This document shows, piece after piece, positions 1-18,840 of a stretch of DNA of 29,492 nt (the stretch's first letter is position 1; each line of letters starts with the position of its first letter). The translations under genes and the position numbers were made by a program. The stretch is from Psammoneis japonica (lineage: Eukaryota). The DNA is taken from NCBI GenBank assembly GCA_008632985.1, contig QPGO01000250.1, forward strand, positions 62,001 through 91,492, in the 5' to 3' direction. Below the pieces are notes generated by a model. It searched no databases. It had not been told where the DNA came from and was given only the letters and a program-made list of their open reading frames with translations.

Positions 1-3000
1 CCCAAAAAATTTGCCGCGGTTCCAGGCAAAATCAGCAGAAGGAAGGAGAGCAGACGGGGAGGTCACGGCGTGGAGAAAGGCAGAGCAGGAAGCAGCAGAG
101 TTGCAGAGGTCGGCAAAGGAAGACCAAGGAGGCTTGGGCAAGGACCAGGTGAAGGAAAGCGTGGAGCTGAAGAGAAAGCAACGACTGAAGCAGCTGAGGC
201 TGCCAAGGTGGTCAACGGCAAAAGAAAGGGCAAAGATGCCGCTGTTTTGTTGAGGGAGGCAACAGCGAGGAGCCCATCAGAAGAAGAGGTGGGAGGTCCA
301 AGGAACTTCAACCTCACACTCAAGTGGTGTGCCCAAGCTGAAACAGGGAAAAAGAGAGCAGCAGGCAGACCAGGAGGAGGCAGGGTGGAAAAGGAGCTTG
401 GGGGAGACGGCGACATCAACAGCAGTGCAGTGGCAGTGGGAGGGAGCCAAAAGAGAGAGGCAGGAGGCAGCACGGAAATGCTGATGTCAGCATGGCAAAG
501 AAGCAGGTGGCCAGAGCAAGGTTTGCAGCTTTAAGATGAATGTCTTCAGAAGAGCAACAGAGCTTGGCAAGAGGGCCCAATGTCAGGGACACAACGAAGA
601 GGGTGTCATGAAGGCTGTTGGAGAGGTTGGACTTGTGAGCACATTCACAAGAGAAAGCATGATTGCTGCAGGCATCAAGCACAATGTGGTCAACATGCTG
701 CATGGCAAAATCTTTTTGTGTTGAGTTTGTGTTTTCTTTTTTTGTGCCATTTGAGTGCTGACATGCTCCTGCCCTGGGCATGAGCTTGCAGCAGTGCTGG
801 CCTGTCACACAGCCATTTTTTGCCATCATTTGCATGCACATTTCTGCTGTGTGTGCTCTGCCAAGGAGTTGCTCCACACTCCCCATTTGCAAAGCTCAAG
901 AAATTTCATTTGGTGCACTTGCGGGAACAGCAGCACGCCAAGCACGCTCTTCAATGTTGGAAGAGAACACACCATGCTAAGCAAGAAACGATGCTCTTCA
1001 ATCATGGACAAGTTTGTGCATTTGCAAAATTGCCTCTTTTTCTGTTGGCAATCATTGATTTGTTCATCACCTGACAATTTTGCTGCAGAGCTCACACACA
1101 GAATTGGTCTGGAATGTGTCTGCTTGCCAAAGATGCCATCTGTGGCCCTGCTTTGTCACGGCTTTGTGGGTGCAGGGCTGATTGTCTCACATGATCAGCT
1201 GTTGCTTCTGCAATGATGGCATGTTTTTCACAGTGTTTGCACCACACCAGCACTCCAATCAAGAAGCCTTTCTCACTTGCTGCTCCCACTTGACAACCCT
1301 TTGTGGAAAGTTTTGTGAACAATGTTGGTGTGCTTGCAATGCTCTTGGCTTGCTTCTCAGGGACTTGGCTGGCTTGCAAACATGGCACGCCATTTTTCAC
1401 CATCACAATTTCTGGATGCACTCCAATCACAGGTGGGAATCCGCTCGACAGTGTGTTGGAACATCTGGGTGCAAGGTGGTTCTTTTGCTGCTGGCAGAAG
1501 GGCAGACAGACAATGTTGCAGTTTGTGACACACTGGCGATTGTTGTGATGCGGTGATTCTGCATTTTTGCAACTCTTGACAAGCTGCAGGTCATGTGCTC
1601 ACTTTTTAGCTTCTGCACCTGGTTGACACAAAAACAGCATCAAAAGCATCCGAAATGTGTTTGCAGGCCATGCAGTGAGTTGGGGATCAGCAAAGCCAAA
1701 CGCACGCTGGCCCGCAAGCTGTGCAAGTCCAACACAGCAGCTGAAAAGTCATGGCATGACACTCAAAGGAGTGGCATCATTCAAATGCAAAGATTCTGAG
1801 GGCCTTGCTGTGGGACAGCCACAAGGGCTGCCGAAGGAAGGCGCGGTGAGGTTGTGTCAAGCTGGGACAAAATGGGCAAGGATGCTGAGTGAGGAAGTGC
1901 AAAACAGATTCAAAGGAGCGGGTGCATGATGCCATTGCTGAGTCAGGGCGACAGGCAGATGGTTGCACAGAGACTGTGAGAAAGATGAGCAAGCATGTCA
2001 GAAAAATGTGGTGCAGGTGTCAGTGTCTCTGAAGCAGGAGAGCAAACAAGTGGAGCCAGAGCATCCATCAGGTGATGCCATGTTGGAGAAGGACAAGTCA
2101 ATCTGGGGGGGAAAAGATGTGACCACCATGTGAAGCAGGACATGATCCACAAGACACACGAGGCAAAGGCATTCAGCGCAATTGCAGGACAGTGTGTGAA
2201 GGCCATCCATCACAAGGTTGAAGGAGTGATGGAGTTTGTGAAGGCAACAAAGGAGCAAGGCATGGTGTTTCTGGCATTCTCAAGTTGATCTTGTTCAGCT
2301 CAAATGGGAGAATCTGCCCACACATTCAGGCAGTCAAGGCTTGGAAGCAGTTGGTGCTTGTTCATCAAGATGAGAGAGAGAGGTGTGGTTCAGGATCACC
2401 ACAGCTGGTTTGTGAGCATTGCAAGGTGGTGGAGAGGTCCTGCAGCAGAGTCTCCCCCTGAAGAAATTGACAAGAAAGAAAATGGGTTCAGCAAGGATGC
2501 TGATGACACCCAGAAGAAAGAAAGGAACAAGTTGTCAGTGGTGCTGCGCCAATGGAAGGCACCAAGGAACATTTGCACATCTTGAAAGACCTGCGCAGGC
2601 AGTTTGCATTGGGGGTCAACAACTGCCCCAACTCACCCAAGGAGGCATTGCAGGTGTTGGACATGTGTGGGGCCAACAAGATGCTGAGGGTGCAAGTTTT
2701 GTGCAAAGCAAGAAGAAGCAGCTCAAGTGCCAGAAATGCAACAAGGTTGGGCATGTGAAGAGAGATTGTCCTCTGCTCAACAATGACTGTGATGTCTCGT
2801 CAGTGGAGACAGAAGAAGCAAGCCATGAGAATTGGCAGATCAGTCAATGTGGCACTGGGTGGCGCATGGTTTCCAACTGTCATCCTCCTTGAAGCAGTGC
2901 ACATGAGGCCAGTCAATTGGTGGCTCATGTGAAGGAGTGTGCTCTTGGAATGTTCAGCCATGAGGTGGTTTTTGGAAGGACAGACAGAAAATGTTGAGTC

Positions 3001-6000
3001 ACTGGCACATCACCATCACTTTGAAATGACCAGTGAACAAGTTTTAGAAATGAGCAAGAAGTGAACGTTGCAATGGTGGAATTTTGCCAATCGCAGGTTG
3101 AGGTTGTGGGTTCAAATCTCTCCTCCACACTGCACTTGCATGACATGCCAGTGCACTGGAAAAAGACAACAACGCGTGCTGGCACATGGGGCACACCTGT
3201 TCTTTGTGTGCCAGGACGTGTCATCTTCTTGCACCTTTTGAGTGGCAGCAGCCTTTTTTGCCACAGGTTGAGCCATCATCTCAGAGATGTTTTGTCCCTC
3301 GATGTTGTCGTTGCTGTCCAAGACATCATGTCACCAATGCCGTGGCATGTTGCAACAGGCAAAATGGGGAGGTGGGAGCTTGCGCGTGGAGCGTGGGTGC
3401 AGCGCACCACTGGCAGCACTTGAGGCCATGAAATTTGCCAGGGGAGCTCAGAGCTGCCTCTGAAAGGCAACACAGTGAGTGTGCCATGACATGACACAAG
3501 TCCTTTGCCATTGTTTGTTCATTTTGGGAGCCAATTCCTGAAGGTTTCAATGTCCAGCAGGTCTGGAGAGAGGCAACGGATGAAATGTGAACTGGCCAGA
3601 TTGGCTGTTCTGCAATGCAGACATGCTGAGGAACCACCGCCCCCTCAGACGTTTCTGTGCTCATCAGCGCTGCAACAACAAAAATGCAGAAAGACATGTC
3701 CCTGGAGGGGTTGTTGTTGACTGAGTCAACTTCCAAAAAGAGAGGGGCAGATGACCTCTTGCTGGTGCACCCCCAAGCTTTTGCTGTTGCATTTTGGTCA
3801 AAGCAGCAAGGGTGAGCATGTTGTCAATGCTCTTCTTGCTGATGCCCTTTTCCCAAACTTCAGCATTGCTTGTGCAGCAAAACTGATTGGGTTGGAGAGA
3901 AAGCAGGAAGGGCTGTTGGTTTGCTTTTTGCAATGATCTGGTTTTCTTTTTTTTTTCCAATTGAAGAGATCCACAATGTGTCAAAGGGAGCATTGTTTGC
4001 AGGACCCTCCTTGTGGTCATCCATGCTTTGAAGAAGAACATGGAGTTTGTTGCAGTCAAGAGAAGTGCTTGTGGTGGTTTCTCATTGTTGCACTCACATG
4101 CAACAAAAACAGCTGTTTTACACACACAAAATTTTTGATGCCAATGATGCTGTGCAGGCCATGAAAGCATTTCCAGAGCATGGGACATTGCAGCAGTGTG
4201 GCTGTGTTGCACTTGGGTTTTTTCATGCCACAGAAACATGGGACATTTGGAGAAACTTGTGAAGGCAGTGCAACAAAAGCACAAGAAGTGGGTGAGGAAC
4301 ACTCCACTGCAACAGACAAGACAGTGCTTGCACCAATCAACCCCGCTGTGATTTTTGCCATGAAAAACCATGGTGACCACGTGTCAATCACAAAAGATTG
4401 CCGTCCAATTTCTCTTCAAATTGTTTGCTGCCAATGACTGAGAGCAAAGCAGGAAATCATCAAAAATGATGGAAGCAAGTTGCCTGGTCAGCTGAGGTGA
4501 TGAATGAGTCCATCCATGAGTGCTGCTTTTCTTAAGATTTGTCTTTTTCTTGTGCCTTCTTTTCAAAAAAGCAAAGGTGCAGAAATGATGACACAAGCAG
4601 TTTTCTCTGCTGAAAAAAAAAAGAGCTGACCTGCATTGCAGCACAGTGCTTTCAGCTCACTGCAATTGATGCCACAACTTTGCAGTCTTGGGAATGCACA
4701 CAATGCTGCACACAGAGGAAAGCAAATGAAGAACTCAAAGATTGTGGTTTGTTGCCAGGCCAAGTGGCTTTCATGTCACCCCATGTTGTTTTTCCCATTG
4801 TTTTCCCACAAGCAGCCACCTGGCCAGGTTGGGTCAACCCCACAAAAAATGAATGAAAAGAAAAAGAGAGGAAACAAGGAGCAAACATGCAGCCAAGATG
4901 TCAAATGTCTTTCAGAGCCATGTGTCCACACAGCAGCTCCCACTCCACTTGTTGTGTTTGGCCTCACTGTTTTCTGTGAGCCTCTTTCATGTTGAGAAAT
5001 GCCCCCCAGTGCTCCGGCATTTGTCGGAGCAGCTCGCTGAGTGCACACCAAGGAGGTGCTGGCCAGTTGGAGGCAAGTGCTGTGGCCCAACATTGTGCTC
5101 TTGCTGCGCCCTCCCCAGCACTGCCTCCGCTTGTTGTGCCCATGCAAGCTGAGCAGATGTTGAGTGAGCTGCCCCATTTCTGTGATCCTGCTGGTTCCAA
5201 GGAGCCACGTTGTGACAGAGCTTGACAATCAAGTGCCTTGCCCATCTCTGACCTGTTTGCATGGTCCCACCCACTGGCAACATGTGTCCAAGTTCAACTT
5301 TTATAGAGCAAAAGCCAGCAGGGGGCAGTGTTTTGTTTTTCCCTTTCTCAGCACATCAGCTCTCCCCTTGGCCAAGCACAGAATGTTGTTGTGGAGTGTG
5401 CAGAGGCATCAAAGCCAGCACCCACAGCAGAAGGGAGGTTTGACACCAAGCAAAGCTGAGGTGATGACAAAGAAGCACACTGCAACTTGATGAGCTCTTC
5501 CATTTTTGCACAGTTCCCAGTTTTTTGTCCTTTTCAAGCTCACCTCTTTGAAAAATAAATCTGCCATGGATGACACCCCACATCCTCCTGTGTCTGCTGC
5601 AAGAAATGCTTGCAGTGTGCAAACAATGGCTCATGTTCTGCTTGCATCACAATGTGCAAGCAAGAGAAGGGCAGAGCTGCACAGTTGAAACAATGACAAC
5701 AACAAGACCATTGCACAAGAAAAAAGACAAAATTGTTTTGCCAAGAGCAGCACACACCGCACACTCACAATGTTGTCAAATTGCAGCAAAAAATTGACAC
5801 TCCATTTCACAGCATTTTTCCAGAGAATTGTGCCATTTCCACTTGTTTCATGTGAAGCGGTCAACATTCTTGCAACACTGTTCATGCTTTCCATTGAAAA
5901 GTCTTTTCTGTGCTGCAGGAGCTGGGTGAGATTTGCAGTTGGATCTCCACACCCAGCATGACAAACTCCACTTTACAGCCCCATGAGCATGACCATCTTT

Positions 6001-7750
6001 CCTGCTGCTTGTCCACACTGGAGACAAGATTTTAAGCTGGTGCAGTCTTTGATCAGCTGTTTGGCTCATCTTGAGTGTGCACAAATTCTGGGATTGGCTC
6101 AAGTTGGCCACACAGGTTGGCTTGTGACAGGCTGGCCTGGCTGGCTGTGGGGAGTTGCCACCGCATCAATGTCCTCAAAGGTGGCTGCTCCAAGTGTGCA
6201 CTTGTTCTCAACATTGGTGCTGCATTGCCAGCACAGACTTGCAGCTCAAAAATTTCGCTTGCTTTGTTTGCCAAACACGCCATGGCCAATCATGTGGCAA
6301 CAAGGCTTTTGTTCAAACAAGACAGGTCATTGTTGCTGAGTTGACCTGCTCCACTTGCAAGCCAAAATGGCTGTGCTTGTCTTCTTTTTCTGAGCTGGGG
6401 GATGAGAGATGAGTTTGGACATTTTTGTTTCTTGCCAGCATTCAAAGCTCCAGCTTTGCCTGTGAAGTTGCTGCCAAATTGGGAGAAGGGTGTTGCAGCA
6501 TTGCCATGTCTCATCCCACTGTTGCACACAAAAGATGTGCTGAATGCAGAAATGGAGCACTTTGCTTTCCAGTGCATCACAGTTTTGGAAAAGGCATTGA
6601 AGGTTTCACCTTCAACAGCCTCATGGCCCAAGCAACTGCTGACAAAATGTTTTGTGGTGATTTTGCACAGCCAGCATGAGTTTGTTGCAGATGTGCTGAC
6701 ACTGGCCCAGCACCTTGCCCACTGCATGCCTTTTGCAGCTCTGCTCCCAGGGAGTCATCAGCCCTCAAAAAGGCCACACTCCATTGTGGTTTCCAGCTGA
6801 CACCAACTCCACCTGCAGCACAGAAGAACAGCAGCTGCAGGCCACAGAGAAATGAGTCACAATGCTTGTTGGCAACAAGTGGTCAGAAGGACCTTTCTGC
6901 TTTGTGCGGGCGCCAGGCACCCGGGTCATTGAGCTGTTCCATCCTTTGTCCTGACGGAGCTGTGGGTGGTTGACCCAAGCTTCAACAACATGCCACGGTG
7001 CTCAAAATCACACCAAGCTTGGAAATGTTTCATGTTCTGATTGCCAGCAGTTGGCCTTTGGTGACAGTTTGTCCACTGCAGAATGCAAAGCAGTGCACCA
7101 TGTGTTGAGCATCAAATTTTGCGGCTGCAATGAGACCCGCCGCCTGTTCTGCAACACCTGCAAAGACGGCTCTGTCCCATCCAATCTGGCAAAGGAGGTC
7201 ACATTTTGCAAAACCTGCTGCAACCATGCAGCTGATGCTTGTTTCACAGATCCAAGTGAAGACATGTGCAAAGCTGCGCAAGCAAGCTGTGGCAGACACT
7301 GCTGCACATGTGCGATGACATCTTGGCTGGACAGGATGCGTGCCAGACATGCTCTGTTGGCACAGCTGCTGCCAATTTGAGCCACACAGTTGGCATTGGC
7401 AGCTCGTCATTGACAGCAGAAACCCAGAGTTGGTGGGAAATGACCCTGATGCAGAATTTGCATGTGACAATGCATGGGCATTTGGCCCTGAATGTTGTGC
7501 ACGAATGGACCAGGCAACAAGCTGTCTGACTGGCACTCTGCTGCCCCGAGTCCAAATGGTGTTGCCACTTCAACTCCAACCAGCATTGCCAGTTGCCACT
7601 CCTGATCCAGCTCCTTTCTCCAGCACCAGAGAGGGTGCACTCAAGCAACAAGGGTCTCTTCCTCCAGTCCCTGTGAGACAAATGGGGCCCTTTTTTCACC
7701 CACTTCAGGTGTCACCAGCATCCTGGTCAGCAGAAACACATGTCTTGGCC
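1..7750. other. TpA-depleted (and CpG-depleted) hypermutated block of decayed repeat/TE-derived sequence
   Basis: About 11 TA dinucleotides counted by eye in 7750 bp (532, 978, 1607, 3045, 4119, 4533, 5302, 5304, 5556, 5974, 6033). TG and CA are very abundant and CG is scarce. ORFs in all frames almost lack Tyr and are Cys/His-rich. Confidence 0.92.
1960..2880 (+). mobile_element. Degenerate LTR-retrotransposon Gag relic (Ty1/Copia-type, diatom CoDi-like), no adjacent pol recognised
   Basis: CX2CX4HX4C zinc knuckle CQKCNKVGHVKRDC at 2728-2769. It is preceded, across a frameshift, by DLRRQFALGVNNCPNSPKEALQVL, which resembles the Copia Gag 'L.N.y..G...YP.t...A..lL' segment. Multiple frameshifts. 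Confidence 0.6.
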
Positions 7751-8022
7751 TAATCAATTTCTTCCTCTTGGGAAGCCTGGCTGGTCGTGTTCTGTAGTCG
7801 AAACACATTGTTTCTTGGAGACAAAGGACATCTTGGGACAGTGCCATTTTGTTTACATAAAGGTTATAGGGAATACATGTGTAAAAGTTCATTACATAAG
7901 TTCGATGTAACAGCTCCGTTTTTCGCTGTTTTCTTGAATTGATCTAGAAGATCAACTCAGGCATTTCTGAGGTGTACTCAATGAAGCTTGCCGGGAACAT
8001 CTAAACGGATCGTCTTCTACGT

Positions 8023-11000
8023 TCAGAGCGGGAGCAATTTGCTAAGCTCTTCTTCTAACTCTGGATTTTTGTCGCCATTGTCGATCTCTTGGAAAACTTG
8101 ATAAGCCTTTTTGAACGACTCTGCAGCCATGGACTCTCGACCCTCCAGTTTATGGATGTTTCCGTCCATCAACAGCACCTGGACCAACTCTTCGGTTTTC
8201 TCTTCTTCACTGTCATTTTGTATTCGGACAAATTCTTCCAGATAGCGTTGTGCTCTTCCATAGTTGCCACATTGAAATTCGGTAGCTCCTAAGTACTGAA
8301 CGACTTCTGCAACTCTCATGTCACTGTTTCCATACAAGAGTGTTCGTATGGACAGTGCTTCCTCGTACGCGTTCCTTCCCTCGTCATAGGCTTCATGATC
8401 ACTTCTTACACTTCCCAGGGCAATCAGGGCGTCTGCGACCTTTTCGTGCTCATCCCCGAATTCGTCTCTACGTATTCGTAAGCACTCTTCGTAGCACTCC
8501 GCTGCTAGCTCGTGTTCTTTCTTCGATTCGTGTGCGTTACCGATGTTTTTAAGAATGTCTGCAACTTTGCGAACATCATTGTGGAGTTTCCGGATTTTTA
8601 GTGCCTCCCACAGTAAGGAAAGCGCTCCGTCGATCTCCCCCATTTTCGCTTTTAAGCATCCCATCATGTTTAATACTTCAGCTGCCTCCCTCGACTCTTC
8701 CCCGCATCGATTCCTTCTAATCTTTAATGCGTCATCAAAACACCGCAGCGCTTCGTCTGTTTTCTCTTGGTGATGAAAAGTGAAAGCCATGCTGTAAAGA
8801 GTTGTAGCTACATCTTCATGATCATCACCCAAGTGATTCTTTCGTATTTGCAGCGCTTCTTCGAAACAACGCATCGCCTCGTCATGGTTCTCCATTTCAT
8901 CTTCCAAGTCTCCTAGTTCTTGCAAGACATTTCCTACTAGCTCATGACTGTCCCCGTGAATTGACCTTCTTATTCTCAATGTCTCTTTGAAGGAGCTTAT
9001 GGAGAGCGCTGTATCTCCTGCAATGTCCGAAAGCAACCCGATCTTTTCGTGCGTGAGTGCTACCTTTTCACTGCCGGGCAAGAGTTCAACGCGAATCTTC
9101 AGAGAAGCTTCTAGGAATTCTAGGGCCTTCTTGAGACGATTACAAGTTTGGTGTATGAAGGCGATGTTGAACAAAGTCGATGCCACTTCTAACTGAACGA
9201 ATCCAAGAGTCTTATCTCGAGCAGCGAGACTCTGCTCAAAGTAATCCATCGCCTTGTCGTAGTCGCCAGTCACAAGGGATACGCACCCAATAAGATGTAA
9301 AAGAGCTGCAATCTTTTCTTTCTTGTGTGGTACGCGAGTTTGGAGAATGACGAGGCTTTTTTCATAGCTTGCTAGCGCATCTTCGTGTCGCCCTTGAATA
9401 TTATAGAGAACACCCTCAATTGATAAAGCTTCGGCTTCTTGTTCGTCATCATTTGACCGTCTCTGCCTAAGTAACCAGATTGCCTTGTCGAACTGCTCAA
9501 TGGCATCCTCTGTTTGGTTCAGATCTGACAAGCAATTCCCAATGTGCTGATGAGTAGCCGCAAGTTCCGGATGATCTTCTCCCAGTTCCACCTTTTTGGA
9601 GTGCAACGCATCTTGATAGCACTGGAGAGCATTTTCTATCTGGCCCTTACTATAATGGATGTTGCCCATGTTTCCAAGAGTGTCACCTATATCGATGCGG
9701 TAGAAATTTTCAGCGGCATACATAACGTCAAGCGCAAAAGTATAGCACTCCATGGCCTCTTCAAAGTCACTAATGGCCAAGAATACGTCACCAATCTTTT
9801 GAACCGTAAGGGCGAAAAGTATATGATGGTCCCCATGGATAGCGCCTCTAATGCGAAGACAGCGCTTTAGAAAGGACATGGCCTTTTTGTGTTTGTGAAT
9901 CTCCGCATAAGCTACTCCAATGTTGAAAAGAACCGCGGCGACGAACTCTTCTACTCCCAATGATGAGACCAACATCTCCTCGCTTGTTTCCCAGTGACTA
10001 ATAGCTGCATCCCAGCACCTCTTTTCGGCAAGCGACAGTCCAATTTCATAGTGCGCAGTACCAGTCTCCACGAAAGAAACCGGATCATCGTCTTCACCAG
10101 AACTGTCGCTGTCATCGACCGTCAAGAGGTTGCCCAGCAGCTTGTAGCCTTCAATCATAAATGCCTGAGATCGCTTCTCTTTCTCGCCGTCTGCATCATT
10201 TTCATCTTTAGCAAGCAATTCGTAAAGAGCTTCGCAGTCCGTAATGTGCTGCCGTGTGGCATTCTTTCGTCCCATGCATTCAACCCGTGCCCGAACAAAT
10301 TCCACGTCGTGCATCAATTGACAAGCCTCTTGGCTCATTCCCGCCCGTATCATGTGTGAAATAATCATTTCCGACATGTAGAATCTGGTCGATTCTTCCG
10401 TTCCCCAACCCGAAGAGTTTTTCAAGTGGCTGGTGACGAGCTCCTTGTTCCATTTGCGTTCGCCGTCTATGCAAAGCTCTTGCAAATCCGGATCCTCCGT
10501 CGCAAGAAAATCCCCATATTCTTGAAAGAAACGATGCATAATTTGCAACAACGCAGTTGCGTCTGCGTCCTCACTGCTATCGTCCGACCAACTCATATCG
10601 GAAGCGCTATCAAACAGTGGCGTATTCGCGTTCTCTACATGAATCACCTTGACCACACCCAACGCCGCCAGAGCCTCAGGTATCAAAATCGTAGCATCGC
10701 GTAGCTGCGAGAAGAACTCAGGTCCATCCTGGGACAGTCTTTGCTCTTCCAGTTTGAGTGCGGCAGCAAGTAGCATGTCGACTAGCGCCATTGGGATTTT
10801 GGGTTGTACTTCGGCAGGCGAAAAGAGCGAATGGTGCTCCTCCTTGAAAAACACCATTACCAGGGCAGCAAAGCAATACTTGATGACACGAGTTGGTTTG
10901 CCACTGACTTCTGGCGAAAAAGCCATGTTGAGAATTTCGTACATTGCATCACAACGTTCGTCCCCACCGCTCCCAGTACTCTTTGTCGTATTACCAAGAC

Positions 11001-12192
11001 TACTTGTGGCAAGGCTGCCAGTAGCAACGCTGCTGAGATCGTCGTTCTTGGAAATGAGTGCGTTCAGCAGTTGAGCCACTTGTGTTAGACTCTCATGTAC
11101 AATTTTCTGAATATCATCACTATCTTGCTCCGCCTCCGCAACCTGTTTGGCGTGCTTGAGACTGAGCCATCGCGCGACGCACTTGACCGCCAGGGGATGA
11201 TCTGCGCAAACTTGCACCAACCGGCGCGCTTCTCGTGTTTCCGCCATGGTTCGGTCCAAAATCTGACCCGACTCGGTAACCATGAGACGGATGGCCTCTG
11301 CGTCATAGAGCAAGTCAACTTCCACCGTGTCGGCGGGCAGCAATAAATCGCGACGAGACGTGACCACCAAGAGAGAGCGTGCATTCTTGGAGGGCACTCC
11401 CATCATGTTGACACTGGAAGTCGATCCCGTCAATGGGCAAAACCGAAACCAGTCCAAATCATCGCTGTATTCGACATTTTGAAGCACAATCAGTACTTTG
11501 CGGTCTCGTAATATTTGCGAGACGAGATCGCGTGCAAAACACATGAAACCCACTTGTCGTCCCTCCCGCGTCGAAGATGATTCACCGGGTGTCCGCAAGA
11601 GAACCGGAAAGACCGGCATTCGTTTTTCTGGTATCAGCTGAGACAATAGCTCCTTGAGACAAGAAACGTATCGAGAATAATTCATTTCTTGTGATCCCAC
11701 ATTAACCCAGGCTATCCCGTCCTTGTAGTACCTGCGAACATCATGATGTGTAGTCACCATAGCAGCCATGGTGGCCTTGCCTACACCTCCCATGCCCGGT
11801 GAATAGGGATCACTCCATTCTTCCGGTATCGACGAAATCGAAACAGCAACAGACGTGTTGGAGTCACGTCCCAAGTGACTTCGCAACGACTTTGTTTCGC
11901 ACGTGACCGCCGTGATGATGGATGCGTCCGTCAAGGCGTGCATGGGAAGCAATTTCGAAAGAATACGACTCATTGTTTTAGGACGAGGCAATGGTTCTTC
12001 GTGGATGCTACTCAATATTTCAAGAGCCATGGGTGGGATGCGAGCAAGGTTGCGGTCCTTGTCTTGGACATCCTCGTCGTCCGTTTTTCTTTCGGTGCTC
12101 TTGTTGTCTGGAGTGACAGGATGAAACGCCCCCTTTTCTGATCCTCCAATCTTTGGAACATTTTCGCTATTGATGACAATTTCAAAACTCAT
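8023..12192 (-). CDS. STAND/NB-ARC-like NTPase with long C-terminal TPR array (nephrocystin-3/kinesin-light-chain-like TPRs), about 1389 aa
   Basis: Uninterrupted 4.2-kb ORF with first ATG at 12192 (the ORF track starts at an upstream GTG). Walker A-like GMGGVGKA at ~11773-11796, Walker B-like KVLIVLQNVE, RNBS-B-like LLVVTSR. More than 10 42-aa TPRs of the type A..L.N.G..Y...G....AL..Y..AL.I....G.DH. Normal TA and CG content. The true 5' end may involve an upstream exon. Confidence 0.88.
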   Translation of the reverse strand: MSFEIVINSENVPKIGGSEKGAFHPVTPDNKSTERKTDDEDVQDKDRNLARIPPMALEILSSIHEEPLPRPKTMSRILSKLLPMHALTDASIITAVTCETKSLRSHLGRDSNTSVAVSISSIPEEWSDPYSPGMGGVGKATMAAMVTTHHDVRRYYKDGIAWVNVGSQEMNYSRYVSCLKELLSQLIPEKRMPVFPVLLRTPGESSSTREGRQVGFMCFARDLVSQILRDRKVLIVLQNVEYSDDLDWFRFCPLTGSTSSVNMMGVPSKNARSLLVVTSRRDLLLPADTVEVDLLYDAEAIRLMVTESGQILDRTMAETREARRLVQVCADHPLAVKCVARWLSLKHAKQVAEAEQDSDDIQKIVHESLTQVAQLLNALISKNDDLSSVATGSLATSSLGNTTKSTGSGGDERCDAMYEILNMAFSPEVSGKPTRVIKYCFAALVMVFFKEEHHSLFSPAEVQPKIPMALVDMLLAAALKLEEQRLSQDGPEFFSQLRDATILIPEALAALGVVKVIHVENANTPLFDSASDMSWSDDSSEDADATALLQIMHRFFQEYGDFLATEDPDLQELCIDGERKWNKELVTSHLKNSSGWGTEESTRFYMSEMIISHMIRAGMSQEACQLMHDVEFVRARVECMGRKNATRQHITDCEALYELLAKDENDADGEKEKRSQAFMIEGYKLLGNLLTVDDSDSSGEDDDPVSFVETGTAHYEIGLSLAEKRCWDAAISHWETSEEMLVSSLGVEEFVAAVLFNIGVAYAEIHKHKKAMSFLKRCLRIRGAIHGDHHILFALTVQKIGDVFLAISDFEEAMECYTFALDVMYAAENFYRIDIGDTLGNMGNIHYSKGQIENALQCYQDALHSKKVELGEDHPELAATHQHIGNCLSDLNQTEDAIEQFDKAIWLLRQRRSNDDEQEAEALSIEGVLYNIQGRHEDALASYEKSLVILQTRVPHKKEKIAALLHLIGCVSLVTGDYDKAMDYFEQSLAARDKTLGFVQLEVASTLFNIAFIHQTCNRLKKALEFLEASLKIRVELLPGSEKVALTHEKIGLLSDIAGDTALSISSFKETLRIRRSIHGDSHELVGNVLQELGDLEDEMENHDEAMRCFEEALQIRKNHLGDDHEDVATTLYSMAFTFHHQEKTDEALRCFDDALKIRRNRCGEESREAAEVLNMMGCLKAKMGEIDGALSLLWEALKIRKLHNDVRKVADILKNIGNAHESKKEHELAAECYEECLRIRRDEFGDEHEKVADALIALGSVRSDHEAYDEGRNAYEEALSIRTLLYGNSDMRVAEVVQYLGATEFQCGNYGRAQRYLEEFVRIQNDSEEEKTEELVQVLLMDGNIHKLEGRESMAAESFKKAYQVFQEIDNGDKNPELEEELSKLLPL

Positions 12193-14423
12193 GGTACATT
12201 TCACAGATTGACCTGATGAGACAAGAGATTGCGGACTTGCGGCGCTTCACCACTAGCATCCGCATTGTGTCCCGCCTTTTGGCCGCTTGCGTGACCTTGA
12301 CGCGCACTCCCAAGAGAAAATTTTTGTCTCCATGCGTTGAATTGTGTAGGAGCGCGACTCAACATAACTGCTTTCTTTTATATAAATATATCGAAAATCA
12401 TTCCAACTTATTAGATACTGTTTACATTATTGTCCGCATTTTCTGATAATAAAAATCTCGAGAACCTCTTATTTTTCGATACAATTTTTTACGTCATGAA
12501 GATATTTCAAAAAATTCTTTGATCGGCAACAATGAAACCAACGCCATCACCATCACACCGCGGTGTACACCAACCACAAAACGGGCTTCGTTTGATGACA
12601 ACCCCCAACCAGCAGCAGCGAGGGTTGCTGCACATGCTTCTCAAGGCATTGGGTGTCCCCAAATGAGTGGCTCTTTTTGCACTGGAAGGGGACCACCACA
12701 TCATGCTTCACAAGGCAAAAAGCCAGCTTGATGCCACAGATGGTGCTCGGCATTCTTCAAGCATGATGTGTGGATGCAACTGACATGACAGCTCTCACTG
12801 TGGCAGCAGGATGCCTCCACATCACAGTGGAAGCAGTGCACATGCTGCACAAGGCACTTGACAGCAACACTTGCATGTGTTGATGTGTTGCAGTCTCAAG
12901 CAACAGGGTCGAGCCGGAGGCCAGAGCAGGCCCTTGAATGTCAAAGACAGAGACGCCCACTTGTTTGGACAGAAGATCCCTTCAGAACCTTTCAAATTTC
13001 ATTTTCAAGCAGGCCATTGCAGCAGAATCTTCTCCCAGTCCTTTGATGAGAAGTGGTGTGGGCGTTTGCACTGCTGGAAAAGCTGCGGGGTCTGGCCGGT
13101 GAGAGCCGAAGCCTGTGCTGCAACAAAAGGGCAAAAAAACTCCTTCTCACAAAGCACAAATGGCAGGCAAATCTGCTGGGCCCCAAGGACTGACACAATG
13201 ACAACAATGTCATTGATGCAAGGGTTGCCTTGCGCAGCAGATTGATTTTGTCTTTGCAGCTGGCGCGGCTCTGGGCCACAAAGAGCTCACAGCTTCGTTG
13301 AGGAGGCACCACTCAAGCTCACCAATGAACACATCAAAGTCATGGGCAGCGTGAGTTCAAAGTGCTTCAAGGAATTCCAGGACCTCTTTGTGGAAGGATT
13401 TGTGGTGGTGCAGAACAACTCCAATGTGTTGCTCTTGGTCTGGCTGAAATCATGATGCACAATGGCAGCTGCCCACATGCTTTGCTGGAGCAGCTTCAAA
13501 TGGTTGACATGCCAAAATTGAGCCTGAAAAAAAAGCCTTGGTCTTATCTCACAAGTTCCTTGCATGTGTTGGCGTCTATTTCACAATCATTTGTCAGCCT
13601 CGCACTCATTTTGTTCAACCTTTTGCACACAACAAAAAATTGCACAATGGCGCTGGCACTCATTGGCTGCATGTGACATGTTTCAGCACCGCTTGAGTGG
13701 CAGTGCCATTTGGCTCATTTTGAAAATGTGGGCACTCCAACTGCGCTGTTGCAGAAACAGAAAAAGGCTCTGGATGAGTTGACAAAAGCACAGTTGGATC
13801 AGCGCAATTCCTTTGCAAGAAAGAACGTGACTTTGTTTGAGATGTTGTGACGTGGTGTGGAAGGGTTGCACTTCAATGAGACAGAGTCAAACAAAAGGCA
13901 CTTGCCCCACAGCGCACAGAAGAGTTGTGCATTCTTGCTTGCTGCTGCATCTCAATGTGCAGCTGTGCTGAGATGATGTCTGGAAAGCATCCAAGACTGT
14001 CCCCAATGATGCGAGGGTGTTCAACATGAACAAGAGCTGCCCCCCGTGATTGTGCGCTGCATCTCCTGATGTGGATGTCAGTTTGGACATTGTGGAGTGT
14101 TCACGCATGTGGCCATTGAGGTGTCAGAGCCTGAGCCAGAGAAAACCAAGGAGAAAAACTTGGAAATCATCCCTGTGAATTCATCTCCAGACTTGCAAGA
14201 AGAAACAAAAAGGGAAACAGCAGAAGACACCAACAAGAAGGAGAAGAGCGAGAAACAAAACCAATCTCAGAGGATGGGAAAAAGTGAGATGGCGGACATC
14301 ATCTTGGCCAACAAGCAATGCCATCACCAGAAGATTGAGAACACAAAAGATGCTTCCTGACAAACCTTGTGCCAATCATGCATTGTTGGCTGAGGTGGAA
14401 AAAACAGTGCGGCTCTTGTCTTG

Positions 14424-14570
14424 CAGCGCCAAATGGAAAAGGGCGCAAAACAGCCAAGGCCACAAAACACGGACAAGGTCACAAAATCAAGAAGGGCAAA
14501 AACTGGCGGCTCAAGGTGCAAAATGGATGAGGGCACAAAATCATCAAGGGCACAAGATGGCTGAGGGCAC
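14424..14570 (+). repeat. Degenerate tandem array of about 9 units of 16-21 bp, core (A)AGGGCACAAAAT
   Basis: Units include agggcgcaaaacagcc / aaggccacaaaacacggac / aaggtcacaaaatcaag / aagggcaaaaactggcggctc / aaggtgcaaaatggatg / agggcacaaaatcatc / aagggcacaagatggctg / agggcacac. Confidence 0.7.
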
Positions 14571-15160
14571 ACGTTTCGATGCTCATCATCGATCGAATTG
14601 CACTGCACTTTTGTTTCAGTGTCTCGCTTGTTTTCTTTGACATGGTCATCTTTGTGAACCCCACAGAGAAGATCTTGATCAATGTGCCAGCCCTGTGGAT
14701 GAGCAATGGGTGATGTTTTGGTGTCGGTGTCGACATCATTTCGTTTCAATTGACATTCTTCGTTGTGTTGGAGTGGGGCTGCGGGGTGTCCCACGCTCCC
14801 TTTTGGACCAAACCAAGCAAGCTGCAGTTGACACTGTCACGAGGAATGACAATTGCAGTGCGCAATGGGAGGGTGTTGATGTCCATGACGCTGCCAAGTG
14901 CCGGTTGGCAGTGCTCCCTCGTTCAGAGAACGCAAACTGGGGTCAGATCTTGGTGGCGTGGAGAGTCTGCGATTGGAGTGTGAGCGAGCAGGCTGGAATC
15001 TCGAGCAGTTCACTTCTCAAGGATGTGTGCAAAAGGTGTGCTCACATTTAAAGGAGCATTGATGCATCATGGATTTGCAGTGCTGGCATGAGGATTTACA
15101 AACTGACAATGTCGTTCTCCGTCTCCATCTTTCCCATCCAGTGGCGTCTTAATTTTTCCT
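14571..15160 (+). repeat. Dispersed repeat copy A (TpA-mutated), homologous to 18841-19440
   Basis: Colinear direct similarity with shared anchors such as ttttctttgacatg, gtgtcggtgtcgaca, aaccaagcaagct, tgtgagcgag.aggctggaatctcg, attgatgcatcatg and atctttcccatc. Confidence 0.92.
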
Positions 15161-15947
15161 TGCCACAAGCACTGCATCCACTGCACCTTCTCTGTTGGCT
15201 TGGTGAGCACGCTTTCTAAAAGCTTTTCCATTTTGACAACATCTGAAAGCAAGTCAATGCGCTCGCAGAGCATGGTGGGGACGTGACCGCGTGGAGTCAT
15301 GTTTGGGAACTTGCGTGCCGCGTCGGACTCAAGTGCATGGACCTTGCGTGATTTGTTGCTCTTGCCACTTTCTTCCCATGAGTGTCTGCCATGATGTGGC
15401 CTGGCCACATGGGAAAAAGGAGAAACAAACGACAGTGTGTGGCACAGCACCATGAGCAGACATGACACACAAAAAACAGAGACACAGTCACTCACTGCCG
15501 ACAACGCTCCACGTCAAAACCTTGACCTTCATCGCACGTCTTGAAGAAACAATCCATCCAATGGCAGCAATTGTGTTCTCAAGTGTCCTTCTCAAATGAT
15601 TCCTGTTCTCTAAAACTTGACAACTGGACGACATTCGTTGCTGGCATCTTTTGGGAGATGCGAGCGGGAGTGTTTGACAAGAACAAACAATGCACCGCGT
15701 TTGCACGACTTGCGCGCAGGAATCAAAGTGGCTCGCAGATGCGTTGTCTGGAAAATGTAACGAGACATGCACACAACATCTCCTGCCGCAATGACACTTT
15801 GTCGGAGCCATTGCGAGGTCTCACGGTTGGATGTGCAAGTCGGACTTCTTCTGCAATTTCCGTTGGGGCTGTTTGGTGCTGTACGTCATTCCTGAAGACG
15901 GAATCTCGACTTGAAATAAAAACAAGTCGGCACTTTCACAAGAGACA

Positions 15948-15949
<2 letters not shown>

Positions 15950-15985
<36 letters not shown>
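15950..15985 (+). repeat. (CT)18 microsatellite
   Basis: Perfect CT dinucleotide run seen directly. Confidence 0.97.
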
Positions 15986-15987
<2 letters not shown>

Positions 15988-16927
15988 TCATCACAGAACT
16001 GGGCCATTTCTACATTCCTTCGATTGATCCTCTGCAAAGGTGCGAGTGAATTGGAAGGGTGCGGTTTATCTTGCAACGTCAACGAGAGCATGACATTGAT
16101 TGCATTTTGCCGACTGGGAGCGACTTTCACAGGTTTTCAAGCAGTGCGGAAGACTTTGGGAAATGATGCCACACGCGTGTTGGCGCCAAAGAAGAAAGCA
16201 AAGAGCCACATGCTTAAAAGTCGTCCTGCCACGAAACACCCTCTGGAGGAAGTTGCGTGGAGCGGATCGACTGGCAAGTTCTCTACAATGATTGTCCGCT
16301 GCTCCATTCGGTCGAAATCTGGGAGGGTGGCTGCTGCAGTGACAATCTGCCAGGATGGACTGTGCTGCTGTTCTTATGCTTGAGACAGGCCCTGCCATTG
16401 ACAAGAAACCAGTGCGCAACTAAAGGGTGCCAAACTAGTCCACCGGTGCCGTAGAAGCGTCCTTGGCCTTCGATCTATCGGTTGGGACACGAACGACAAA
16501 AATTGCGATCAAAACTAGTTTACGACGACACGGAGAAGTGTTGGATAATTTTTTTGTTTTTATTTAATGTTTGTATTGTACAAGACTCTAGTCATCTTGA
16601 TTGAATGAAAGCAACATTAGATTGCCCAACTGAAATAGAACAGCAAAGTATCTCCATGCGTTTCCGTCTTGAACAGTTTCCTCGGCTTCAATTTTCCTTT
16701 TCCACTTGCCTCCACTTTCAAAAAGAAAGCGCCTCTTTCAGATTTTTGCTTCAGAAACAACTCGTTTTGCACATATAAAATGAGCATGAGTTTGAGTGCC
16801 ACATGGATCTCTCATTTTCGTTCACATGTTGTTCGAGAACAAAGACATGCTTCGGAATCAGCTTGATGAACATGTGTGTCCAATGCAAGCTTGAAATCGA
16901 GACCCAGCGTGATCAATCAAACATTCC

Positions 16928-18010
16928 TTAACAAAGTACTTCCATGGTCGCACCTCTCATATCGATGGCAAAGGCCTGCTTTATTGAAAAAGCGAGCCAG
17001 AAAAACAAGTCACAGCCGCATCCGCATAAAAACACTCGGCAATCCTCCCCAGTCGAACATCTTGTTGGAATGATCGTCACAAGATTGCACAAACGATATC
17101 CTCTCCCCCAATTTAGCACCTTACAAGTCGCAATCCGGATCGTCGTCAAAGATGTCAATAAAAACCTCAAAGTGAACCACCCCCCTCCTGAGCCGAGCTG
17201 GTCCGAAAGGTGGTCCTCGGTCGTCTGTTTCTCGCGTCCGTCGCCCAATTTCACATCGTAGAACGGGTCAAGGTCATCGTCAAAATAGACCCTTAAAATC
17301 TTTGCCCTGCACGTCTTGTCTGGATGGCGATAATACGCGTACTGCCCCTTCTTGAATTTGGACGTTGGCTCCTTCCAAGGCTTCTTGACACGGTCGTCGC
17401 GATGGCTCGACAGATCGTCCTCGGTTGATGGTAAAAACGATCCCGTAACGTGCATGCGAATGAGACAGGCCAGTGCCACTACCAACATGAGACGGAAGAG
17501 AAATCCCATAAGGCCACTGATATCAAAATTCTTGAAAGCCATGCCGATGTGAAACACGACAAAAGCAGCAGTCAAATCGAAGCGCTTCAAAACGGCTGCT
17601 GCGCTCGCAAAGTCGACACGCTTGATGCATTCCTTGGACATGTCAACAACGAGTCCCATGCACTTCAATAAGATTGATTTGGACTTGATGGCAACGAAAT
17701 GGAGTTGGCTCCAGATGGGAGACCCGATGATGGAGGACCAAATCGATTTGACAGTGACGTTCGGAAACCACTGCTGCTTGACATGCAAAAAGTCCTCCGT
17801 GAGCCCCAACAACCCCTGGTACAATCCATAGATAAACGTCGAGAATATCGTGATAGAAACAACATCGAGATCTTGTAGTAAGGCGCAATAACCGACCCAA
17901 AGAGCAAAACGAAGCCAATCGCTCGCGCTCTTGCGTTGAATCATAACTGCAATCAAGTCACAGTGGCTGACATTGATAACTGCGTTCATAAAGAGGATAG
18001 AGGACATCAT
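16928..18010 (-). CDS. Putative membrane protein (several hydrophobic segments) with a C-terminal Tudor/SH3-like beta-barrel module
   Basis: 360-aa ORF starting at ATG, with hydrophobic stretches such as FISGLMGFLFRLMLVVALACLI-like. Motif FKKGQYAYYRHPDKTCRAKILRVYFDDDLDPFYDVKLGDGREKQTTEDHLS resembles a small barrel domain common in diatom proteins. The C-terminal tail is uncertain (possible intron or read-through). Confidence 0.6.
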   Translation of the reverse strand: MMSSILFMNAVINVSHCDLIAVMIQRKSASDWLRFALWVGYCALLQDLDVVSITIFSTFIYGLYQGLLGLTEDFLHVKQQWFPNVTVKSIWSSIIGSPIWSQLHFVAIKSKSILLKCMGLVVDMSKECIKRVDFASAAAVLKRFDLTAAFVVFHIGMAFKNFDISGLMGFLFRLMLVVALACLIRMHVTGSFLPSTEDDLSSHRDDRVKKPWKEPTSKFKKGQYAYYRHPDKTCRAKILRVYFDDDLDPFYDVKLGDGREKQTTEDHLSDQLGSGGGWFTLRFLLTSLTTIRIATCKVLNWGRGYRLCNLVTIIPTRCSTGEDCRVFLCGCGCDLFFWLAFSIKQAFAIDMRGATMEVLC

Positions 18011-18840
18011 GGTGATGATGGTGATGCAATGTCTTTGTTGTTTGTACCTTCAAAGAAATTGTGACAGCTTGAATCGATGCCTTTCGAAGGGCGCTCGGAC
18101 AGTCGTCAGTACAAAGACACGTAGAATGTACGAGGAATCCCGGCAAAAAGAAAGTCTTGGCACCGTTTCACCATACGGTATACTAATATCGGGCTGGATA
18201 TATGTATTGGCCGAAACCGACCTCTAACATCATGGTCACTACCGGTAAACATGTTCCGACATCATGGTGGTGTTGCGATCAATTCGGTTGCTTTTTGACG
18301 CTTTGATGGATGTTTGTGTGGTTCAGGGAAGTTCAACATTTCCTATTATGTCTTTTCCTCTGCCACGTATCTTCTATTTAGTAAAGGCTATTGTTTGACG
18401 ATATGTCTACTTTCGTTGATTCATCTTTTTATTTAGGACTCTTTCTTCACACATATGTATGGTATCATAGTACTTCTCCATGGCCTTGTCCCTTGTCGGC
18501 AAGGATTTATAAGTCTGTCAGGATGTACAAGCTGCGTAGAACGCGTGTTGCCATGCGTGGTCAACAGCCTCTAAGTAATTTTGACGGTGCGAACTCCGCC
18601 GTTAAAGTATATTAATTTATGGATATTTTGTATATCCTCATTTTTTCAAGGGATCGCGCATCATTCATCAAGCACCACACACCATGATAATCGGAGCGCC
18701 GCTTATTAGACTATTGACGATCCTTTCAACAGTACCAACGCTATCTACTAGTCTTTACCTCCATATAGAAACAGCTTATGTTGCTTTTTCGAAGGTAAGC
18801 GGCCAATTGTAAGGTGAAAAAAGGATTTTGTATTGACACC

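Follow-up and report, generated by a model that had tools for sequence, protein, structure and literature searches.

Near-complete loss of TpA in blocks of the Psammoneis japonica genome: probable TpA-specific hypermutation of silenced DNA in a diatom

A spared gene between TA-erased blocks

The stretch of DNA analysed here (the window; 29,492 nt, positions 62,001-91,492 of the forward strand of Psammoneis japonica contig QPGO01000250.1) is diatom nuclear DNA. It carries an intact NB-ARC/TPR gene, by which the organism is recognised as a diatom, and three discrete blocks in which the dinucleotide TA is virtually missing. Dinucleotide frequencies are given below as ratios of observed to expected counts (O/E).

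1-7751, no strand: TA-erased block 1; TA O/E approximately 0.022, CpG O/E 0.18, (TG+CA) O/E 1.82
2725-2772, plus strand: CCHC zinc-knuckle motif (PF00098, E 8e-6 and 4e-5)
8023-12204, minus strand: intact NB-ARC/TPR gene of 1393 aa, spared, between blocks 1 and 2
12566-15048, no strand: TA-erased block 2; 2 TA, TA O/E 0.013, CpG O/E 0.38
15049-16500, no strand: right flank of block 2; TA O/E 0.19, (TG+CA) O/E 1.45, CpG O/E 0.76
24659-25616, no strand: TA-erased block 3; 0 TA in 956 bases, CpG O/E 0.70, (TG+CA) O/E 1.69

The first-pass annotation, made from the sequence of this DNA, had reported about 11 TA in 7750 bp where several hundred were predicted, and the count bears this out: base composition predicts 494.8 TA for positions 1-7750, which hold 11 (O/E 0.02), and in the remainder of the window the TA O/E is 0.46. 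With 0.040 TA per base, the non-block rate, 7750 bases would contain no more than 11 TA with a Poisson probability of approximately 1e-115. The saturation of the block with TG and CA was likewise recovered (873 TG, O/E 1.75; 889 CA, O/E 1.91), and CG is reduced to 85 against 471 expected (O/E 0.18). Block 1 extends past the left end of the window. Its right border is abrupt: a TA lies at 7751, and from 7795 onwards TA is dense. The block borders are sharp to approximately 45-60 bp. The right flank of block 2 is either a fuzzy edge of that block or a partly mutated stretch. Blocks 2 and 3, which show the same TA loss as block 1, were absent from the first-pass list.

The adjacent gene had been described as ordinary in TA density, and the segment 7752-12565 that holds it indeed has a TA O/E of 0.54 and a CpG O/E of 1.04. 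As a composition control we took ten metagenomic, diatom-like loci, 115,014 bases in total, in which relatives of the NB-ARC gene lie; their TA O/E is 0.54-0.69 and they have no TA-free gap longer than 235 bases, whereas gaps in the window reach 1718 bases, although these loci, being gene-rich metagenome contigs, are uninformative on the repeats of other diatoms.

The loss of TA distorts the apparent coding content. The blocks have no TAA or TAG stops and no Tyr codons, and codons for Cys and His are in excess. Because the two stops are missing, long false open reading frames (ORFs) arise, and block 1, which makes up 26% of the window, holds 18 of the 38 window ORFs of at least 120 aa. Because of the enrichment in Cys and His codons, false zinc-finger matches are possible as well. 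The sole match in a Pfam scan of six read-through frames of block 1 is zf-CCHC. This knuckle may, weakly, point to a Gag remnant, and it could also be a chance product of the Cys/His-rich composition: among 300 simulations matched in composition, 17% contained the bare C-x2-C-x4-H-x4-C spacing and 1.3% the stricter GH form. When ORF 2416-2892 was compared with the whole library using HMMER, the best stretch of each of the 102 matches included or abutted the zinc knuckle, and none of these matches indicated Gag homology. In the rest of the window (83 ORFs of at least 75 aa) Pfam recovered only ankyrin repeats, a UQ_con fragment, a weak RT_RNaseH match and two chance-level matches, and neither in the block 1 frames nor in the window ORFs did it find a reverse transcriptase (RT), integrase or viral domain. 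The ORF at 16931-18049 gave one weak match, and the translations of the block 3 ORFs are featureless. Support for the blocks being of foreign or transposon origin is weak and comes from the one CCHC motif and from multi-copy read depth in part of block 1.

Read support and direction of the change

Three sequencing runs, the public run X1 together with X2 and X3, were compared with the window. The Logan contigs of X1 have a mean of 214 letters per record and a k-mer depth of 64-67. Because they are built from exact 31-letter words at this depth, the underlying reads are taken to be accurate, a judgement made from the contigs since the platform is not on record; the X1 sample may be the source of the assembly and is not an independent biological replicate. 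The X1 contigs carry TA-free block 1 at depth 67, equal to that of the NB-ARC/TPR gene. One record of 3963 letters spans 3947-7909 with 4 differences from the window, and another of 7933 letters spans 8044-15939, joining the gene and block 2, with 5 differences. The X1 bins 668-3335 are multi-copy, with a summed depth of 315-8019; the bins 3336-7337 are single-copy at 85% likeness or more, and yet TA-free.

These contigs bear on the caveat, raised by the first-pass annotation itself, that a modified base at TpA (6mA or 5hmU) was miscalled in native long reads and that the error was kept in the assembly. Nanopore assemblies are known to carry systematic errors at methylated motifs, and at a palindromic site the reads from one strand would give TG and those from the other CA. 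The artefact is nevertheless very improbable. The accurate-read contigs of X1 reproduce the TA-free sequence, and none of the seven differences listed for the block 1 single-copy contigs (40 of 428 differences being listed) turns TG or CA back into TA. Neighbouring sites alternate between TG and CA, unlike a majority-strand consensus, and in Bigelowiella natans the same signature was obtained with Illumina sequencing, according to the available text of the preprint (bioRxiv 10.64898/2026.01.13.699255). The evidence thus argues against an artefact and for a TA loss that is real in the DNA.

Where X1 and the window disagree in block 1, four of the seven listed differences exchange CpG with TpG or CpA and two convert a residual TA to TG:

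978-979, no strand: residual TA, variable TpA site; TG in the X1 contig
4533-4534, no strand: residual TA, variable TpA site; TG in the X1 contig

That 2 of the 11 residual TA differ in this manner hints that the activity is still ongoing. Run X2 contains 0.45 of the sampled words, roughly the share of the gene in the stretch searched. Its depth is approximately 47 over the gene and 7-15 over block 2, while most of block 1 has no coverage. These depths would fit a transcriptome with silent blocks; the run type of X2 is not on record and no conclusion is drawn. No contigs of run X3 were placed on the window.

Two copies of a dispersed repeat, one inside and one outside the TA-depleted sequence, allow the change to be followed site by site:

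14592-15156, plus strand: copy A, hypermutated; 78.1% identity over 571 columns to 18874-19439
18874-19439, plus strand: copy B, unmutated high-copy copy with ordinary TA and CpG, adjoined by ORF 16931-18049

Copy B has a local TA O/E of 0.74-0.83 and a CpG O/E of 1.09-1.14, at a summed X1 depth of 1600-2630. In this one paralog pair, 554 aligned columns contain 114 differences. Read from B to A, the transitions are 35 A>G and 24 T>C against 9 G>A and 12 C>T. The A>G and T>C changes thus account for 59 of the 114 differences; the other 55 come from the ordinary divergence that two old copies accumulate, which only a consensus would separate from the process. The 34 TA of copy B appear in copy A as 18 TG, 12 CA, 2 TC and 1 GA, with 1 kept, so that 30 of 34 became TG or CA, in agreement with the earlier claim of an A:T>G:C process acting at TpA on both strands to near saturation. 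The rate of A>G by 5' base is 18/33 after T, 7/35 after C, 7/37 after A and 2/32 after G, and that of T>C by 3' base is 12/34 before A, 3/51 before T, 6/45 before G and 3/42 before C. Sites that became TG are interleaved with sites that became CA, in 16 runs where 15.4 are expected, and the TG and CA counts are homogeneous across block 1 (chi2/dof 0.94-1.28). Since the outcomes alternate from site to site, both DNA strands are affected. In the three blocks, then, essentially every TpA has become TpG or CpA by A:T>G:C change on a strand that is random per site, and the neighbouring gene and one high-copy repeat copy were spared.

Of the few TA that remain, 12 of 19 have a T immediately 5', compared with 160 of 704 TA in normal DNA, and an A follows 4 of 29 changed A against 10 of 29 spared A. 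These counts hint at 5'-TAA-3' being poorly targeted, in small numbers and with a block-versus-normal tetranucleotide comparison confounded by the differing sequences.

The direction from TA to TG or CA is drawn from this one paralog pair and from parsimony. The alignment of copies A and B alone is unrooted, and one could suppose that the blocks are foreign or selected DNA that never had TA, or that copy B gained it by RIP-like CpA>TpA change. This reversed reading is highly improbable: both versions call for an ancestor nearly devoid of TA across kilobases of non-coding sequence, and hence for some TA-erasing process in any case; the TA O/E of the blocks (0.00-0.02) is far under the range in related DNA (0.54-0.69); and copy B shows no excess of TA and has normal CpG.

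The same interleaving bears on the idea that retroelement RNA, in double-stranded form, underwent ADAR-like A>I hyperediting and that the edits became permanent when it was reverse-transcribed and reinserted. In favour of such editing are the preference of ADAR enzymes for a 5' U, as cited in the B. natans preprint (bioRxiv 10.64898/2026.01.13.699255), and the possible Gag knuckle in block 1. It would, however, leave only TG or only CA along an element, whereas here the two alternate, 873 against 889, and Pfam found no reverse-transcriptase remnant in the block 1 frames or window ORFs. We regard this origin as extremely improbable.

CpG decay and the proposed mechanism

The CpG O/E is 0.18, 0.38 and 0.70 in blocks 1, 2 and 3, against 1.03-1.04 in all non-block segments. 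The CpG deficit and the TpG/CpA excess of the blocks, beside a CpG-normal gene, are the pattern of 5mCpG decay. This decay is limited to the TA-erased blocks, where it is lesser and variable in degree, and TpA loss can be near complete while CpG is little changed. CpG being less depleted than TpA in the same blocks, TpA loss is therefore the faster process. In the diatom Cyclotella cryptica CpG methylation is binary: repeats are methylated in blocks reaching 30 kb, and the gene-rich DNA next to them is unmethylated (PMC5124317).

A system of the kind seen here has been reported once. Mettrop et al. (bioRxiv 10.64898/2026.01.13.699255) describe TpA-only A:T>G:C hypermutation in B. natans, where it affects NCLDV and virophage DNA integrated in the genome. 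Their mutation-accumulation lines, sequenced with Illumina, had 231 mutations in the two viral regions, and 230 of them were A>G or T>C; the authors place every one of these GC-biased changes on a TpA dinucleotide, and the changes arose in real time at approximately 1000 times the background rate (bioRxiv 10.64898/2026.01.13.699255). The first-pass annotation knew of no such genome-defence pathway, a claim overtaken by this preprint.

We consider it probable, at roughly three chances in four, that the blocks record real, DNA-level, TpA-specific hypermutation of silenced DNA, saturated, enzyme-driven and directed against mobile or foreign DNA. The activity would be aimed at silenced DNA that is probably CpG-methylated and heterochromatic, and the blocks would be what is left, at saturation, by the process observed as it happened in the B. 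natans mutation-accumulation lines. Any coding sequences or TATA/AATAAA-type signals in the blocks would be permanently wrecked.

As to the chemistry, we tentatively suggest, at somewhat less than even odds, that a nucleic-acid deaminase turns adenine into hypoxanthine in the 5'-TA-3' context. Hypoxanthine would pair with C at the next replication and give A:T>G:C. The palindromic TA would offer one target A per strand, and the first event would destroy the site, leaving about half TG and half CA. For B. natans, too, an ADAT2-like adenine deaminase has been proposed (bioRxiv 10.64898/2026.01.13.699255). Alternatively, it could be the T of TpA that is modified in silenced DNA, for example to 5-hydroxymethyl- or 5-formyluracil by a TET/JBP-type dioxygenase, and that then miscodes as C. 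Dinoflagellate 5hmU is reported to prefer TpA and TpC, and 5-formyluracil is reported to cause A:T>G:C transitions. The products would be the same (TA>CA, read as TG on the opposite strand) and fit the alignment and the interleaving equally; TA being palindromic, the two chemistries are indistinguishable by product. A miscoding base would be expected to cause transversions as well, yet 30 of the 33 changes at TA sites in copy A are the two transitions, and we consider modification of T unlikely.

More tentative again than adenine deamination is the idea of an ancient genome defence, SAR-wide or wider and common to diatoms and chlorarachniophytes, in which an enzyme active on chromosomal DNA would be guided to mobile and viral sequences in a methylated or heterochromatic state and would turn each TpA there into TpG or CpA. 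Such a shared pathway would amount to a natural context-specific A-to-G DNA editor, under which stops, Tyr codons and TATA/poly(A)-type signals would be lost faster than CpG is by 5mC decay; the window would show its saturated end state, possibly with continuing activity at the two variable residual sites.

The diatom case is new: it lies in a different eukaryotic supergroup from B. natans, whose description in 2026 is the only precedent reported so far. Full-text literature searches turned up nothing on TpA erasure in diatoms, and the text of the B. natans preprint does not mention diatoms or stramenopiles, although its supplementary tables might list other taxa. If the preferred reading of enzyme-driven hypermutation is true, TpA-specific hypermutation is no quirk of one chlorarachniophyte and is saturating in diatoms too, which are among the most important groups of marine primary producers. 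The enzyme, of interest as a natural A:T>G:C DNA editor, would be findable by comparing the deaminase and dioxygenase families of lineages with and without the signature. Transposons inside such blocks would escape homology-based annotation, and the blocks would form a sequence-readable fossil record of DNA that a diatom treated as foreign or silenced.

Comparison with known systems

The closest likeness is to B. natans, here a chlorarachniophyte (Rhizaria) set beside a diatom (Stramenopila). In both, going by the available preprint text, A:T>G:C change at TpA yields TpG and CpA and is confined to discrete regions, and long-term TpA depletion with a gain of CpA and TpG is clustered. A one-kb-window criterion of the B. 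natans type picks out 12 of the 29 windows here, in runs of 8, 3 and 1. The degree differs: rho TpA is 0.45 in the NCLDV region described for B. natans, with coding sequences of TpA frequency 0.0018 reported as well, whereas 98-100% of TpA is lost here. The B. natans targets described are viral, and the diatom blocks are repeat-like without recognisable viral genes, although the B. natans genome also has TpA-depleted clusters and coding sequences enriched in RT and DDE domains (bioRxiv 10.64898/2026.01.13.699255). By way of comparable targets, the window offers the multi-copy part of block 1, copy A in a dispersed repeat and, in Pfam, only the CCHC knuckle. In the diatom TpA loss coincides with CpG decay, which the preprint text does not report, and the de novo events of B. 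natans are matched here by a fossil record and two variable sites alone.

Fungal RIP is similar in its permanent, saturating, dinucleotide-specific transitions on both strands, in blocks of mobile DNA beside intact genes. It proceeds in the direction C:G>T:A (CpA>TpA) and creates TpA, whereas the diatom process destroys it, and it was rejected on this ground (TpA O/E 0.00-0.02, CpA/TpG O/E 1.7-1.9). It was also rejected on copy number: RIP needs duplicated sequence, and here high-copy copy B (depth 1600-2630) keeps a TA O/E of 0.74-0.83 while the single-copy stretch 3336-7337 is mutated. The repeat-targeting in the RIP sense that the first-pass annotation had envisaged is not borne out by the same observations.

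Decay by deamination of 5mCpG shares these blocks and also yields TpG and CpA, but it cannot remove TpA and is slower and incomplete here (CpG 0.18-0.70 against TpA 0.00-0.02). The methylated repeats of C. cryptica, as far as described, resemble the blocks in forming block-wise binary domains beside unmethylated genes (PMC5124317). ADAR hyperediting and APOBEC3 action on cDNA likewise use hypermutation against invading nucleic acid; they leave strand-asymmetric tracks, of C>T in the case of APOBEC, whereas in the diatom both strands are affected equally at neighbouring sites. The 5'-T/U preference of TadA/ADAR-type adenine deaminases, including DNA-editing ADAT2/TadA, as cited in the preprint (bioRxiv 10.64898/2026.01.13.699255), fits the TpA context.

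Extent and borders of the TpA loss

The TpA dinucleotide (hereafter TA) is nearly missing from positions 1-7750 of the window, where 494.8 occurrences are expected from base composition and 11 are found (observed/expected ratio, O/E, 0.02). Over the same bases TG occurs 873 times (O/E 1.75) and CA 889 times (O/E 1.91), while CG is reduced to 85 against 471 expected (O/E 0.18). The TA O/E of the window outside this stretch is 0.46. Such a near-total loss over 1-7750 had been described in the first-pass annotation, and mapping of every TA position not only bears it out but also carries it further, as three TA-erased blocks can be delineated.

Features of the window (coordinates; strand where assigned; description)
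1-7751; block 1, TA dense again from 7795
2725-2772; CCHC zinc knuckle, the sole Pfam match in block 1
8023-12204; minus; NB-ARC/TPR gene, intact ORF of 1393 aa located between blocks 1 and 2, with NB-ARC and numerous TPR repeats
12567-15048; block 2, 2 TA, O/E 0.013
14519-14571; tandem repeat, 17-base unit x3.1, inside block 2
14592-15156; copy A of a dispersed repeat, inside block 2
to about 16500; fuzzy, part-depleted right edge of block 2, TA O/E 0.19
15950-15985; tandem repeat, (CT)18, where contigs of run X1 break
18874-19439; copy B of the dispersed repeat, in TA-normal DNA
19776-19857; tandem repeat, 35-base unit x2.4
22335-22979; minus; ankyrin-repeat ORF, in TA-normal DNA
23619-23885; minus; ubiquitin-conjugating enzyme fragment (E 8.5e-6, just below Pfam's cut-off), in TA-normal DNA
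24660-25615; block 3, 0 TA
28478-28990; plus; weak RT_RNaseH match (E 0.002), in TA-normal DNA

With the TA rate outside the blocks (0.040 per base) as the reference, the Poisson probability of such low counts is approximately 1e-115, 1e-40 and 1e-17 for blocks 1, 2 and 3, respectively. When the hypermutation cut-offs of a preprint on Bigelowiella natans (Mettrop et al., bioRxiv 10.64898/2026.01.13.699255) are applied, 12 of the 29 1-kb intervals fall within them, in runs of eight, three and one. Ten metagenomic loci surrounding relatives of the NB-ARC/TPR gene (115,014 bases in total) served as an outside control; their TA O/E ranges from 0.54 to 0.69 and no TA-free gap in them exceeds 235 bases, whereas gaps in the window reach 1718. 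Intermediate TA depletion (rho TpA 0.19-0.38) with CpG near normal is seen at 15049-16500, 22001-23000 and 26001-28000. These regions may be partly hypermutated, or, at the ankyrin gene (22335-22979), the depletion may instead be ordinary coding bias.

The NB-ARC/TPR gene with its flanks (7752-12565) has ordinary values of both TA (O/E 0.54) and CpG (O/E 1.04). The block borders (7751/7795 and 12503/12566), defined to within 45-60 bases, lie approximately 270 bases past its stop codon and 360 bases before its start. A search with the N-terminal 700 residues yielded 32 relatives at 30-44% identity, and since the three bearing organism names are all diatoms (Grammatophora oceanica, a Bacillariaceae species and Epithemia clementina), the window is most likely diatom nuclear DNA. 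The junction of block 1 with the 3' flank of the gene (7598-7953) has a second, 86% alike copy in the sample, present on contigs of 1968 and 2012 letters and set apart by 42 differences and 5 gaps, so a further gene-plus-flank arrangement seems to exist at another place in the genome.

Direction, strands and authenticity of the changes

Self-comparison of the window revealed one dispersed repeat with two copies of 78% identity. The copies, a single and unrooted paralog pair, differ at 114 of 554 alignment columns. From copy B to copy A the transitions are 35 A>G and 24 T>C versus 9 G>A and 12 C>T, and outside TpA both directions are about equal. The 34 TA of copy B appear in copy A as TG (18), CA (12), TC (2) and GA (1), with one kept. 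A>G is found at 18/33 adenines preceded by T, and at 7/35, 7/37 and 2/32 of those preceded by C, A and G; T>C is found at 12/34 thymines followed by A, and at 3/51, 6/45 and 3/42 before the other three bases. The direction is taken to be TA>TG/CA in copy A, because the reverse polarity, a gain of TA by copy B, would require an ancestor with zero TA, and copy B has no TA excess (O/E 0.74-0.83).

Read in alignment order, TG and CA outcomes form 16 runs versus 15.4 expected (z = 0.23), as for independent choices, and over block 1 the TG and CA counts are homogeneous at 100-, 250- and 500-base scales (chi2/dof 0.94-1.28). Three mechanisms are thereby excluded, namely editing confined to one strand of an element (e.g., at the RNA stage, ahead of reverse transcription), deamination of single-strand cDNA, and a consensus artefact from the locally majority read strand. 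The TpA-specific A:T>G:C process on both strands that had been proposed from the first reading is upheld: 30 of the 34 TA of copy B became TG or CA in copy A, with the two outcomes interleaved.

The blocks could also have been a base-calling artefact. This was addressed with X1, a public sequencing run of unrecorded platform from a sample from which the assembly may itself derive; the Logan contigs of X1 amount to 140.7 million letters in 657,387 records (mean 214 letters per record). X1 contains 0.98 of the sampled 31-letter words from 4000-13500; the word depth of its contigs is 67.3 in the single-copy part of block 1 and 63.9 in the gene, and exact words at that depth indicate that its reads are accurate. 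One record of 3963 letters matches 3947-7909 with 4 differences, and another of 7933 letters spans the gene and block 2 (8044-15939) with 5. Polymerase-based sequencing does not misread modified bases. Among the 40 of 428 difference rows listed, none of the seven differences between block 1 and its single-copy X1 contigs restores a TA. As accurate contigs reproduce the TA-free sequence at gene-like depth, an artefact is very improbable, and the TA erasure is real and striking. A second run of the same sample, X2, covers the NB-ARC gene (word share 0.45, depth approximately 47), the TA-free blocks being almost absent from it, and its profile resembles that of a transcriptome or of a biased library.

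The seven listed differences (window versus X1) are CG versus CA at 474, 2799 and 4381, TG versus CG at 6334, TA versus TG at 979 and 4534, and T versus C at 7035. Six of them are at CpG or TpA, and among the differences listed two of the 11 surviving TA of block 1 are variable (chance probability of two in seven on TA approximately 2e-4, TA making up 0.28% of block 1 bases). This fits, as a hint, a pair of allelic or clonal variants in which both kinds of change continue to accumulate.

CpG decay, repeats and the content of the blocks

The CpG O/E is 0.18, 0.38 and 0.70 in blocks 1, 2 and 3, respectively, and 1.03-1.04 in every non-block segment; the same domains are thus marked by TA erasure and CpG decay. 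In block 3 TA erasure is complete though CpG is just mildly reduced, and at 15611-16500 the loss of TA is already strong (O/E 0.24) at a CpG O/E of 0.86. TA erasure thus outpaces CpG decay, which speaks for an enzyme and against spontaneous decay. For the diatom Cyclotella cryptica, mostly CpG methylation with a binary distribution has been described, in which repeat stretches as long as 30 kb are heavily methylated and the gene-rich DNA next to them is unmethylated (PMC5124317). The block layout of the window resembles this, and by analogy its locus is probably methylated.

Repetitiveness by itself is no predictor of mutation. Within block 1, bins 668-3335 are multi-copy (X1 summed depth 315-8019); bins 3336-7337 are single-copy at a likeness of at least 85%, yet equally TA-free, and copy B is high-copy (X1 depth 1600-2630) but unmutated.

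A mobile or foreign origin of the blocks is likely and has been demonstrated in part. In a whole-library HMMER search the ORF with the zinc knuckle matched 102 proteins, the best stretch being always at or abutting the knuckle, and a Pfam search found no reverse transcriptase, integrase or viral domains in the blocks. As a Gag remnant the knuckle is suggestive but not decisive, since bare CCHC spacing arises in 17% of composition-matched simulations (n=300; 1.3% for the stricter form with GH). Cys, His and Tyr make up 6.6%, 5.0% and 0.0% of the six-frame translations of block 1, compared with 3.8%, 3.6% and 2.4% for 15611-24658, because TA>TG/CA converts Tyr codons to Cys and His codons. Chance zinc-finger-like patterns are the consequence in hypermutated DNA, and the enrichment of a zinc-finger motif among TpA-depleted coding sequences of B. 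natans (Mettrop et al., bioRxiv 10.64898/2026.01.13.699255) might partly be such a composition effect. TGA is the sole stop codon left in block 1. Loss of TAA and TAG leads to long meaningless ORFs in block 1, which makes up 26% of the window and holds 18 of its 38 ORFs of at least 120 aa; automated annotation would predict too many genes in DNA of this kind.

Possible mechanism and known systems

The erasure occurs in discrete, sharp-bordered domains, with the neighbouring gene spared, and an enzyme aimed at silenced chromatin may act on the blocks. Most likely, adenine preceded by T would be deaminated, and the resulting hypoxanthine pairs with C. A palindromic TA would be lost as soon as it is hit once, which would explain the near 1:1 ratio of TG to CA and the lack of CG products. 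A modified, miscoding thymine at TpA is the alternative, with products identical to those of adenine deamination, so that the sequence cannot separate the two. Two observations weakly suggest that 5'-TAA-3' is disfavoured as a substrate: A is next 3' to 4/29 changed and 10/29 spared adenines, and surviving TA are preceded by T in 12/19 cases in the blocks versus 160/704 in normal DNA. The survivors (532-6033, 12566-15217 and 24659) often follow a T run, e.g., ttttTA, and may be due to an unfavourable context for the process, to newly arisen mutations or to errors tied to homopolymers.

Fungal RIP has the opposite chemistry, C:G>T:A creating TpA, which is destroyed here, and its all-copies rule does not hold in the window. 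Editing of the ADAR or APOBEC type should leave a strand asymmetry, which is absent here. One 2026 preprint, on TpA hypermutation in the chlorarachniophyte B. natans, has superseded the first-pass statement that no such pathway was known. According to this preprint, two integrated viral regions mutate approximately 1000 times as fast as the rest of the genome in Illumina-sequenced mutation-accumulation lines; 230 of 231 mutations there are A>G or T>C, the GC-biased ones all being on TpA dinucleotides according to the authors, who suggest an adenine deaminase resembling ADAT2 as the enzyme (Mettrop et al., bioRxiv 10.64898/2026.01.13.699255). The main text of the preprint does not mention diatoms or stramenopiles, and full-text literature searching found no report of a TpA-erasure signature in diatoms. 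The signature is the same as in B. natans; however, the present host belongs to a different supergroup lineage, and here the process is carried to saturation and spatially coupled to CpG decay. The finding is classified as a diatom case of a very recently described kind of genome defence.
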